Positions 33,001-36,000 of a DNA stretch of 64,000 nt are shown here, one piece after another; the first letter of the stretch is position 1, and each line of letters opens with the position of its first letter. The stretch is from contig DLGE01000005.1 in NCBI GenBank assembly GCA_002482535.1, forward strand, positions 74,530-138,529. Reading direction: 5' to 3'. The position numbers were made by a program. The stretch is from Peptococcaceae bacterium UBA7702 (lineage in GTDB: Bacteria; Bacillota; Dehalobacteriia; UBA7702).

Positions 33001-36000
33001 GTGGTGTGCCCTTGCCGAGATTTTCACGGTATTTTCCCCATTGCGTCCGGTGAGGGCCGGCAAAGTGAAGCTTTAAAGCGGGGCTTACTTTTGAAAATCA
33101 GGGGCGAACTCCGTAATGGCGTCCTGGAGCAAGGTGGCCAAATACGTCATGGAGGGCCCGCCGCCCATGGCAATGGCGACAAAAGCGGCCTCCCGGATTT
33201 CCTCGGCAGTGGCGCCGCATTCCAGGGCTTTATAAACGTGATGCACCACGCAGTATTCGCACCTGGCGTAAATGGTTATGCCTACGGCGATGAGCTCCTT
33301 TGTTTTGGCATCCACCGCGCCGGCTTTTAAATCCGTTTGCGTGAAATGGGCGAAAGCGTCCATCACCTCGGGGTTGGCTTGGGCCAGCGTCTTTTGACCG
33401 TCCTGTAATTCCTTTAACATTTCTCTTGGCTGAAACATAAGATTCCTCCGATCTTTGCAATTCCGTCCGCTGCGGTGCAAACGCGGAATTTGCTGTGTAG
33501 AGTATAGGTATCATTCTTTATTGCATTATAGCATATTCTTGCCGCCGTTGCATCTGCCTTTTGGGCGGGAACTGTTGCACCTCCTTTATGGGAGCGTGCT
33601 TCTTTTATTTTGTCCCTGCCGTTTTGGGTAGGGCAAAGACTGCGCAGCGCTTTCAAGAACAGCTTGTACCGCATAAAATCAGTGGATTCAGAGAAACTAA
33701 AAAAAACGTCTGAGGAGAGCGGTTTCATGCGTATTTCAAAAGCGTTGTTCCGGGTCAAGCCCGTGGGCATTGACAACAGCAAGGAAAAACAGAGCTTAAA
33801 ACGGGTGATGGGTTCTGTGGAATTGACTTTTTTGGGCGTAGGCGCCATCATCGGTACCGGCATTTTTGTCCTCACCGGCGTCGCCGCGTCGCTGTACGCC
33901 GGTCCGGCGGTAATTGTTTCCTTCGTGATTTCCGGCTTTGCGGCAACTTTGGCCGCCCTCTGCTATTCGGAAATGGCGTCTTTAGATCCTGTGGCGGGCA
34001 GCGCCTATTCTTTTACCTATTCCTCAATGGGGGAAATCATTGCCTGGCTGATCGGCTGGAACCTGATTTTGGAATACCTGGTGGCTGCCGGCGCCGTCGC
34101 CGTGGGCTGGAGTTCCTATTTTAACGATCTTCTGCTTTCCATGGGAGTCACGCTGCCGGATTCTTTGACGAAATCTCCCTTTGAAGGTGGCGTGATCAAT
34201 CTCTTTGCCGTGATCATCACGGGATTGGTCATCGCCGTATCTGTTTTCGGAACCAAAGGCAGCGCCAATGCCATTAAAGTCATCGTCTTAATCAAATTAT
34301 TGGTCATCGGGCTTTTCCTTGCCTTGGGTTTGACCCGGGTAGAAACAACCAATTGGGTGCCCTTTGCTCCCTTCGGCTTCAACGGCATCATGCATGGGGC
34401 TGCCATCGTATTTTTTGCCTATATCGGTTTTGACGCCGTGGCCACCGCGGCGGAAGACGTCAAAGACCCCAAGCGTGATCTTCCCCGGGGGATCATCGCT
34501 TCGCTGTTGATTTCCACCATACTCTATATTGCCGTGGCCGCTGTTTTAACGGGAATGCAAAAATACACAGCCCTCGATACGCCTTCTCCGATTTCTTCGG
34601 CGCTCCTCGCCACCGGCATTCGCTGGGCGGGGGCGTTTATCTCTGTGGGAGCTTTGGCTGGGTTGACCAGTGTTTTGATTGCCGTGATTTTTGCCCAAAG
34701 CAGAATTTTTTACGCCATGTCCAGAGACGGTCTTTTGCCGCCGGTCTTTGCTAAGATTCATCAAAGATATCAAACGCCCTTTTTTGATTTTCTGATCATC
34801 GGTGCTGCCATTGCCTTGGTCAGCGCCTTTTTCCCGGTAGAATTCATTGCCGAAATGGCGAATATCGGCACCCTTAGCGCTTTTACCGTGGTGGCCATCG
34901 GCGTGATTGTACTGCGCAGAAAGAAACCGGATATCGAGCGGCCCTTCCGGGTGCCCTGGGTGCCGGTGCTCCCCGTTGTTTCGATTTTGATGTCTGTTTA
35001 TTTGATGCTGAATCTGCCCTTGGTGACCTGGATCCGGTTTGTTGTCTGGATTGCCGTCGGCCTCGTGATCTATTTCCTCTACGGTTTTAAAAAGAGCCTC
35101 ATGTCAGGAAACGACGGTGAAGAATAAAAATGGTGATCCGCAACCGTTGCGCCGCCTTTTCTTTAGCCGGAAAAAGTTTGGCGGCAAAGAAAAAACCTCT
35201 TGACAAAATTAGCTAACACTATTATAATGCTAATACTGTTAGTATTCTGAAAAGAGAGGAAGTGGCACCATGGATTACCCCGGGTTGGCTCTGGAATTTA
35301 TGGAAAAGATGTATTTATTGCGCCAGGCAAAACCCCACCGGCAGATGAACAAGTCCATGCACGGGGAGTGCTTTGTGCTACAGTATATCGCCCATCAGCA
35401 AGGAGTGGTGGTTCCCGGTGAGATTCGCGATATCATGGGCATCAGCTCCGCCAGAATTGCCGCCGCACTCAATAATTTGGAACGAAAGGGCCTGGTGAAT
35501 CGGGATATCGACCCCCGTGACCGCCGCCGCGTTTTGGTCAGCCTTACCCCCCAGGGTGAGGAAATGGCAAAAATGCATAATCGGGAGCTCTACGAAAAAA
35601 CCGTAGAGATGCTGCAACTTTTAGGGGAAGAGGATGCCACAACCTATGTGCGCATCACCGGCAGATTGGCGGAATTGGCAGCGCAGATGAAAGAAACAGA
35701 AACAGTAGAAGCAGAAGAAACAACAGAAACAGAAAAGATAGAAAAATAGAGAGTATAAAAAGAACGATTCATAAGCGAACAAGCGGTCACGAAAGTGACC
35801 GCATTAGGCCGTCGACAAAGTCTGATACGCGGCGAACCCTCTGGCCCACGACAGCTTGAGTACCTCTATGTACACGGCGCAGCCGCAGGCCAAAGCGTTC
35901 ACCGCGTCTAAGCCTTTCTCGACAGCCTGTCATCCTGTAGCCCAAAATCTGCTTGCGCGTATTTTGTCTACAGTCTGAAGCGGTCACGAAAGTGACCGCA

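Follow-up and report, generated by a model that had tools for sequence, protein, structure and literature searches.

A short non-coding repeat flanked by duplicated gene-end hairpins in a Peptococcaceae genome: a probable miniature element of the IS1182 family

[quoted passage not shown] Copy A of the repeat is between the gene for a MarR-family regulator and the genes for an ABC exporter. Copy B is ~9 kb away and in the same orientation, between two convergent genes, a 79-aa open reading frame (ORF; 44471-44710, plus strand) and a DUF1847 gene (45031-45651, minus strand). The features discussed below, all in window coordinates, are as follows.

35806-35977, plus strand: copy A of the putative MITE, 172 bp, with left terminus (T)AGGCCGTCGACAAAGTC and right terminus TTTTGTCTACAGTCTG (nhmmer E=5.8e-60)
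44785-45000, plus strand: copy B of the putative MITE, 216 bp, with termini CAGTCCGTCGATAAAG ... TTTTATCTACAATCTG (nhmmer E=3.2e-42)
44836-44879, plus strand: extra 44-nt module in copy B, ACGCTTAACCTTAGGAAATGCGATAGCATTTGCTTGAAAATGTC, a gap in the alignment of copies A and B
35781-35805, plus strand: upstream copy of a 25-nt direct repeat, AAGCGGTCACGAAAGTGACCGCATT, an exact match to 35978-36002, its T-rich tail now separated from it
35978-36002, plus strand: downstream copy of the 25-nt direct repeat, AAGCGGTCACGAAAGTGACCGCATT, followed by the original tail TTAAAG
44752-44784, no strand assigned: hairpin upstream of copy B, GGCGGAGCAAAGTTTTTTTCGCTCCGCC, with an A-run alongside; on the minus strand it has the score of an intrinsic terminator (13 pairs)
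27356-27382, plus strand: putative empty site with a single hairpin, GGCATCGGCGTTTTTGCGCCGATGCTT, 3' of a 206-aa ORF (26681-27301); the orthologous site (L007) is filled
35270-35749, plus strand: marR-family regulator gene (Pfam MarR/HTH_27), whose 3' hairpin is the putative insertion target
36070-37830 and 37827-39680, plus strand: ABC exporter genes (Pfam ABC_membrane+ABC_tran)
35200-35228: consensus sigma-70-like promoter before marR

Copies A and B are ~88% identical in a pairwise alignment, outside the 44-nt insertion in copy B that the original prediction had put at roughly 40 nt. That prediction, made from the window alone, had recognized the two copies by their long common blocks, and each of these blocks does occur exactly twice in the window (chance expectation 0). 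When the window was searched with an nhmmer profile built from 16 copies of the element, copies A and B were the only matches.

Copy A is bracketed by the 25-nt direct repeat, which contains the GCGGTCAC hairpin. Identical hairpins of 20 nt had been noticed on both sides; they are present, and the repeated unit is actually longer (25 nt). The 20-nt hairpin (GCGGTCACGAAAGTGACCGC) is found in the window only at 35783-35802 and 35980-35999, even with three mismatches allowed (chance expectation 0.01). The upstream 25-nt repeat folds with an 8-bp stem (-16.2 kcal/mol). A single ORF, of 66 aa with a GTG start and on the minus strand, spans copy A; the other results show that the repeat is non-coding, as had been thought. 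There was no match over either copy in a search of the window against Rfam at gathering thresholds. Over 35700-36100 the best Rfam match at E<=10 was to osmY (18.6 bits compared to a gathering score of 46.9), and it was confined to the flanking hairpin. The repeat thus matches no Rfam family; such a match had been raised as an alternative at the outset.

We found that the element has the ends of a transposon. The termini are 5'-(C)AGGCCGTCGACAAAG ... TTTGTCTACAGTCTG-3' (as a left/right pair also written CAGGCCGTCGACAAAG / TTTGTCTACAGTCTG), and they form an imperfect terminal inverted repeat with the consensus CAGnnnGTmGACAAA. We compared the left end (AGGCCGTCGACAAA) to the reverse complement of the right end (AGACTGTAGACAAA). 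Eleven of 14 bases match, and ATACGCG matches on after a 5-nt insertion or deletion. The left end (AGGCCGTCGACAAAGTCTGATACGCGG...) recurs in inverted orientation inside copy A (35903-35928), and the reverse complement of the right end (CAGACTGTAGACAAAATACGCG) is a third, shorter copy of the left-end motif. The element thus has imperfect terminal inverted repeats, and copy A has a long hairpin because its left end is repeated internally in inverted orientation. Copy A folds into a hairpin of ~125 nt and another of ~50 nt. There is also a weak promoter-like match inside the element, which is not conserved in the family consensus.

The extra module of copy B is at the tip of the long hairpin. Longer, two-hairpin versions of it are present in two other copies of the element, one at the same site as copy B (L038) and one at a different site (L042). 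The module (ACGCTTAACCTTAGGAAATG...GCATTTGCCCGAAAATGTC) consists of one or two short hairpins of 44-90 nt and was found only inside copies of the element (44836-44879 in the window; 4134-4221 and, at a second site, about 4290-4353 in L038; 1165-1253 in L042). Either it is a nested mini-element, or an older subfamily carries it as an optional module.

We searched for further copies with an exact 18-mer from the body of the element, using one genome per species. This search gave 40 loci, about 25 of which are true copies, the remainder being chance hits in GC-rich coding DNA. The true copies are in three metagenome-assembled genomes (MAGs) of Clostridia recovered from anaerobic reactors: at least 12 loci in AnMBR.bin542, at least 11 in 'Peptococcaceae' bin.66, and one in AnMBR.bin322. 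Copy A is 86-95% identical to the full-length copies in these MAGs. In bin.66, 6 of 11 copies are at contig ends, as expected if such elements break short-read assemblies. The organism of the window is closely related to 'uncultured Peptococcaceae bacterium' SRR1562003_bin.66 and 'Clostridiales bacterium' AnMBR.bin542 (MarR 86% identical). Its contig is also present as ENA ERZ17807429 NODE_125 (153,731 bp).

The copies in other genomes are flanked by duplicated hairpins as well. Fifteen copies were fully flanked and had a scorable repeat, and all 15 are between two copies of a hairpin that differs from locus to locus. None of the other copies is framed by the GCGGTCACGAAAGTGACCGC hairpin of copy A, a possibility that the original prediction had wanted checked. 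The direct repeats are 22-32 bp long (median 28) with stems of 8-13 bp, and they usually begin with A or AA before the stem and end with 1-3 T after it, indicating that it is the complete palindrome that is duplicated. Of the 8 nt following the downstream hairpin, at least 4 are T in all 15 copies and at least 5 are T in 11 of them; a corresponding richness in A on the upstream side (at least 5 of 8) was seen in 6/15 only. At least 10 copies have a collinear upstream ORF whose end is 14-61 nt away from the target-site duplication (TSD). Based on the T-rich tails and the nearby ends of collinear ORFs, the targets are hairpins at the 3' ends of genes, most of them similar to intrinsic terminators. 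These comparisons indicate that the target is a structure and not a sequence, namely a GC-rich palindrome that forms the hairpin at a gene's 3' end and is in most cases an intrinsic terminator. The element usually points in the direction of the terminated gene and the T-rich tail, with an upstream hairpin copy that has no T-run and a downstream copy that keeps it.

Two sites without the element were found. The first is in the window itself. The L007 locus in bin.66 reads AAGCATCGGCGTTTTTGCGCCGATGCTT-[element]-AAGCATCGGCGTTTTTGCGCCGATGCTT, and the window has the hairpin once with no element. The two regions are orthologous (window 24953-30073; 87-90% nucleotide identity): window 24953-27382 aligns to L007 1-2430 (90%) and window 27357-30073 aligns to L007 2606-5355 (87%). 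The window hairpin at 27356-27382 therefore aligns to both flanks in L007, a single hairpin compared to hairpin-MITE-hairpin.

The second empty site is the marR hairpin in other species. It was found in loci fetched for homologues of MarR; look-ups of the exact MarR and DUF1847 proteins returned the same species only, with the element present. Two loci from more distant relatives (L067 and L068; MarR 75% identical) have a single GCGGTCAC-TTAT-GTGACCGC followed by ATTTTAAAG and do not have the element. The hairpin followed by (A/G)TTTTAAAG is conserved in all of the orthologous marR-ABC spacers (L065-L068). Because a single hairpin is conserved at the marR orthologues, the marR hairpin is the older, locus-specific feature that the element duplicated on insertion. 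In the window, the native arrangement of hairpin and ATTTTAAAG is restored by the downstream repeat, upstream of the start of the ABC gene at 36070. The marR-ABC spacer is 320 nt in the window versus about 120-130 nt in L066-L068.

Two of these orthologous spacers contain possible remnants or relatives of the element. In L066 (MarR 84% identical; region 520-690) the single hairpin comes directly after a partial copy, AAGCGGTCACGA, which is the first 12 nt of the 25-nt duplication in the window. This could be a footprint left after deletion of the element and half of the upstream hairpin copy. In L065 (bin542, MarR 86% identical; 1645-1775) a shortened variant of the element adjoins AGCGGTTACAAAAGTGACCGC+GTTTTAAAG. 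It contains only the long-hairpin part, and in place of the usual right end its right boundary has a left-type terminus in inverted orientation (AGGCCGTCGATAAAGCC). The variant points to a palindromic L/L' subfamily; the insertion may be ancestral, or the site may be a hot spot.

We found that the termini of the element are related to those of full-length insertion sequences (ISs) that behave similarly. A scan of viral contigs with a 17-mer from the right end yielded an IS of ~1.5 kb (L052). Its left end, CAGCTTGTCGACAAAGTC, shares 14/18 bases with the MITE, and its right end has the same 18 nt as that of the MITE. The IS has the hairpin AGCATCCCGAAGGATGCTT on both sides (19-bp TSD) and contains a 459-aa ORF with the Pfam domains DUF772 (6e-24), DDE_Tnp_1_6 (5.6e-32) and DDE_Tnp_1. 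The closest homologues of this transposase that have names at NCBI are mostly called 'IS1182 family transposase' and are common in Bacillota. A second IS (L055, encoding P0044) is inserted in the 3' hairpin of spoVG, between two copies of AAAGACACCCTGTTGCAGGGTGTCTTTT (28-bp hairpin TSD). Four more right ends (L054, L056, L057 and L058, from other copies of the L055 IS and from the L054 IS) run into a hairpin and a T-run. The termini of L055 and L079 have the consensus CAGnnTGTmGACAA. Scans of the viral contigs with the left-side blocks GATACGCGGCGAACCC and GCCGTCGACAAAGTCTGATAC gave chance matches or none. Our first idea was an IS30/IS1630-like parent; it was dropped when the right-end scan gave IS1182-type ISs with matching termini.

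We also scanned metagenome contigs with the right terminus, using a query built to exclude the commonest variant of the MITE in the window. There were 50 loci with 27 distinct flanks, and a hairpin comes first in 21 of the 27 flanks. For five other short elements (126-295 bp), the flanking hairpin recurs 126-295 bp upstream, as predicted by a hairpin TSD.

Some additional properties of the metagenome loci are worth recording. The terminus TATTTTGTCTACAGTCTGA is widespread in metagenome contigs (L069-L118; e.g., L070 6608-6627), including human-gut assemblies. One insertion, beside GCCTTTCTGCGGAAAGGCTTTTTT, recurs in about 20 contigs. L079 (1-1900) has an IS1182-type IS between two different hairpins with no matching duplication, possibly a recombination product of two IS copies; its upstream flank resembles, by eye, the 3' end of 23S rRNA.

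In the full-length ISs, the left end (L052 about 2250-2300, minus strand; L055 1410-1460; L079 233-290) forms a hairpin that takes in the terminal repeat, with a T-run after it. This terminator-like hairpin is just upstream of the transposase gene, where it would prevent read-in transcription. The MITE's long hairpin looks like an enlarged form of this one.

Based on these results we infer that the element is a non-autonomous, hairpin-targeting MITE derived from an IS of the IS1182 family (probability about 0.9). This reading draws on the transposon termini, the hairpin-length duplications, the empty sites, the kinship to IS1182-type ISs that behave alike, and the preferred polarity, all taken from comparison of sequences. 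A MITE had been one candidate from the start, and the dispersed copies, the termini and the hairpin TSDs bear it out. The hairpins flanking copy A are most simply a TSD of the marR 3' hairpin, since the termini of the element match those of IS1182-type ISs that show the same duplication.

A DDE transposase (DUF772 + DDE_Tnp_1 + DDE_Tnp_1_6) from a related full-length IS would move the MITE in trans, recognizing the palindrome, perhaps as a cruciform. Gap repair would then copy the hairpin, leaving the whole hairpin and 1-3 flanking A/T bases on both sides of the element. This proposed route is pathway b of the model in PMC5678879. Transcription of the upstream gene would continue across the element as far as the regenerated downstream hairpin, and should still terminate at that hairpin because its T-rich tail is retained. 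Such sites would be safe havens for insertion, and an insertion that spares genes and rebuilds the terminator would explain the high copy number, and also the breaks that such elements cause in short-read assemblies. Copy A would have hit the conserved hairpin between marR and the ABC exporter genes. Copy B, which is older and degenerate, would have hit a bidirectional terminator between convergent genes and later lost the downstream hairpin copy. The hairpin at 27356-27382 would be an uninserted target of the same family.

Several points weigh against this interpretation or limit it. First, that the element has transposed is deduced from comparative data. Second, the 8-nt tail has no more than 4 T in several targets, among them the marR hairpin and the empty-site hairpin, and a simple terminator scan did not call either of these two a terminator. 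The term terminator is therefore secure for most targets and not for all, and we call them gene-3' hairpins. Third, the L052 IS seems, by eye from the sequences and ORFs, to be antiparallel to the gene whose hairpin it hit, so the orientation preference is not absolute. Fourth, no TSD is detectable at copy B: the downstream duplicate of the hairpin is absent, and after 45000 there is only ACTTTGTTTATG and then a T-run. Lastly, among the scans run there was no autonomous IS with termini identical to those of the MITE and none from the same genome. The closest IS (L052) is from an unrelated viral contig. A tblastn search with the L052 transposase detected no transposase, either in the window or in the flanking sequences that were fetched, and an all-against-all BLAST of the fetched loci found no co-resident IS.

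The insertion at marR puts a hairpin without T's and a strongly folded segment ahead of the native hairpin and ATTTTAAAG, and an effect on read-through from marR to the exporter is possible. In a more novel reading, the marR copy would have been co-opted, with the 197 extra structured bases, or antisense RNA from the minus strand, tuning read-through and thereby exporter expression. In a wider form of this reading, the IS1182 subgroup would sense the polarity of terminators via the T-tract. The marR hairpin does have the element or a remnant in the window, in bin542 (L065), and possibly in L066 (the footprint). We think it unlikely that this reading is correct. If true, T-tract sensing would be a mode of target recognition with no described mechanism.

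It had also been suggested that the two copies are paralogous small RNAs (sRNAs). In this case a structured sRNA or cis-regulatory RNA would be made from the minus strand and act either on the marR-ABC operon as antisense RNA or as an sRNA derived from the 3' untranslated region after DUF1847. The minus strand of copy A has a folding energy of -100.1 kcal/mol (z=-10.7), compared to -70.4 (z=-6.0) for the plus strand, and the minus strand is the more negative in every copy. All six transition differences between the arms of copy A give G-U pairs on the minus strand, as do most one-sided changes in the family, and copy B is, on the minus strand, between the DUF1847 gene and a strong terminator. 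However, the inverted duplicate of the left end, a palindrome in the DNA, explains the fold, and the energy gap comes from G-U pairs in the consensus that all copies inherited. The asymmetry weakened once the whole family was counted with mismatched opposed positions included: ~10 transition events are then compatible with pairing of the minus strand and ~6 with pairing of the plus strand, a difference that is not significant. Double changes were seen in only 2/60 pairs, with low statistical power because the copies are 94% identical. We do not regard the strand asymmetry as evidence for selection at the RNA level or for a functional RNA. In addition, the adjacent gene would transcribe the plus strand of every MITE copy and not the minus strand. 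A repeat that is multi-copy, polymorphic for presence, bounded by TSDs and transposon termini, without an Rfam match (at gathering thresholds or E<=10) and without significant strand-specific covariation is very unlikely to be an sRNA.

A MITE of an IS30-family (IS1630-like) element is less likely still. These ISs also duplicate inverted-repeat targets of variable length, and the target behavior fits: PMC3317919, citing Calcutt 1999, gives junction duplications of 16-26 bp for IS1630. However, the termini of our element match ISs whose transposase has DUF772+DDE_Tnp_1_6 (IS1182 family), not rve/HTH_38, and there was no IS30-type partner among the ISs with matching termini.

The original prediction had described an insertion into a REP-like hairpin. 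The insertion into a hairpin holds up, and the REP-like nature does not. If the GCGGTCAC hairpin were a repetitive extragenic palindrome (REP, or REPIN) moved by a RAYT transposase, with the body inserted into it, one could point to a hairpin that is short, GC-rich, extragenic and present twice. However, those two flanking copies are the only ones in 64 kb, every other copy of the element has a different flanking hairpin, and a single hairpin with a varying loop is conserved at the orthologous marR in other species, as expected of a locus-specific gene-3' hairpin. The conserved repeat is the body, with the termini of a DDE-type IS, and we give the REP explanation hardly any weight. The remaining alternative, that copies A and B are the immobile relic of a segmental duplication in this region, fits two copies in the same orientation 9 kb apart. 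It is refuted by the presence of at least 25 more copies in three MAGs, all at unrelated loci, by a locus-specific TSD at each of them, and by the existence of empty sites. The original prediction had named such a relic as the outcome if there were these two copies and no others, which is not the case.

Much of this behavior has precedents. IS1272, an IS1182-family element of staphylococci, targets terminator hairpins (PMC4923244), and the palindrome targets of the IS1182 family are hairpins or inverted repeats with no primary-sequence consensus, typically the terminator of a gene (PMC4923244, PMC5678879). The partner ISs of the MITE in the window likewise have a DUF772 + DDE_Tnp_1_6 transposase and hairpin targets. 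IS1272 takes an alternative route that deletes the hairpin (PMC4923244, PMC5678879). In contrast to IS1272, for which the hairpin is replaced or partly deleted with no TSD, the group described here duplicates the hairpin completely (22-32 bp). IS1272 is also an IS found in both orientations, whereas the element in the window is non-coding, 172 bp long, and has a strong orientation preference relative to the T-tail. Duplicating the complete stem-loop is pathway b of the published model and is present there as a model only (PMC5678879). A 2018 review table gave the transposition mechanism of the IS1182 family as unknown (PMC6199540).

IS1630 of Mycoplasma fermentans (IS30 family) is similar in that a hairpin-type target is duplicated with variable length; its junction duplications are 16-26 bp (PMC3317919, PMC7648426). 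IS1630 differs in its transposase family (IS30) and termini, and in being an autonomous IS of 1.2-1.4 kb. Like other bacterial MITEs (Correia, ERIC, RUP, bcr1, Chunjie), the element is small, non-coding, multi-copy and intergenic, with terminal inverted repeats, long hairpins and ends that match an IS (PMC10969869, PMC3852290). MITEs derived from the IS1182 family are listed for Methanosarcina acetivorans (PMC3852290). A typical MITE has a TSD of 2-9 bp and fixed length, and the listed ISMac2 MITEs have 4 or 0 bp; in contrast, the TSD of the MITE in the window is an entire hairpin of variable length.

Thus MITEs, MITEs derived from the IS1182 family, hairpin targeting by that family, and hairpin duplication by IS1630 have all been published. 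The literature that we searched has no description of this MITE family, nor of clean duplication of whole hairpins with polarity in an IS1182 subgroup. The family supplies dozens of filled sites along with two empty ones, all of them clean, and these show whole-hairpin duplication and a preferred polarity, the outcome of pathway b.

Another type of element has a similar choice of site. Robart et al. reportedly found in 2007 that class C group II introns insert just after the stem-loops of intrinsic terminators, in one orientation. These introns are ribozyme retroelements with no target duplication and no terminal inverted repeats. Unlike them, the element in the window has no intron features.

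For annotation, both loci and the 66-aa ORF are best masked as a mobile repeat and not kept as candidates for sRNAs or riboswitches, and a duplicated hairpin is best treated as an insertion scar. Elsewhere in the window, at 5263-5362 on the minus strand, there is a full-length match to the NiCo (nickel/cobalt) riboswitch aptamer RF02683 (74.6 bits compared to a gathering score of 37).

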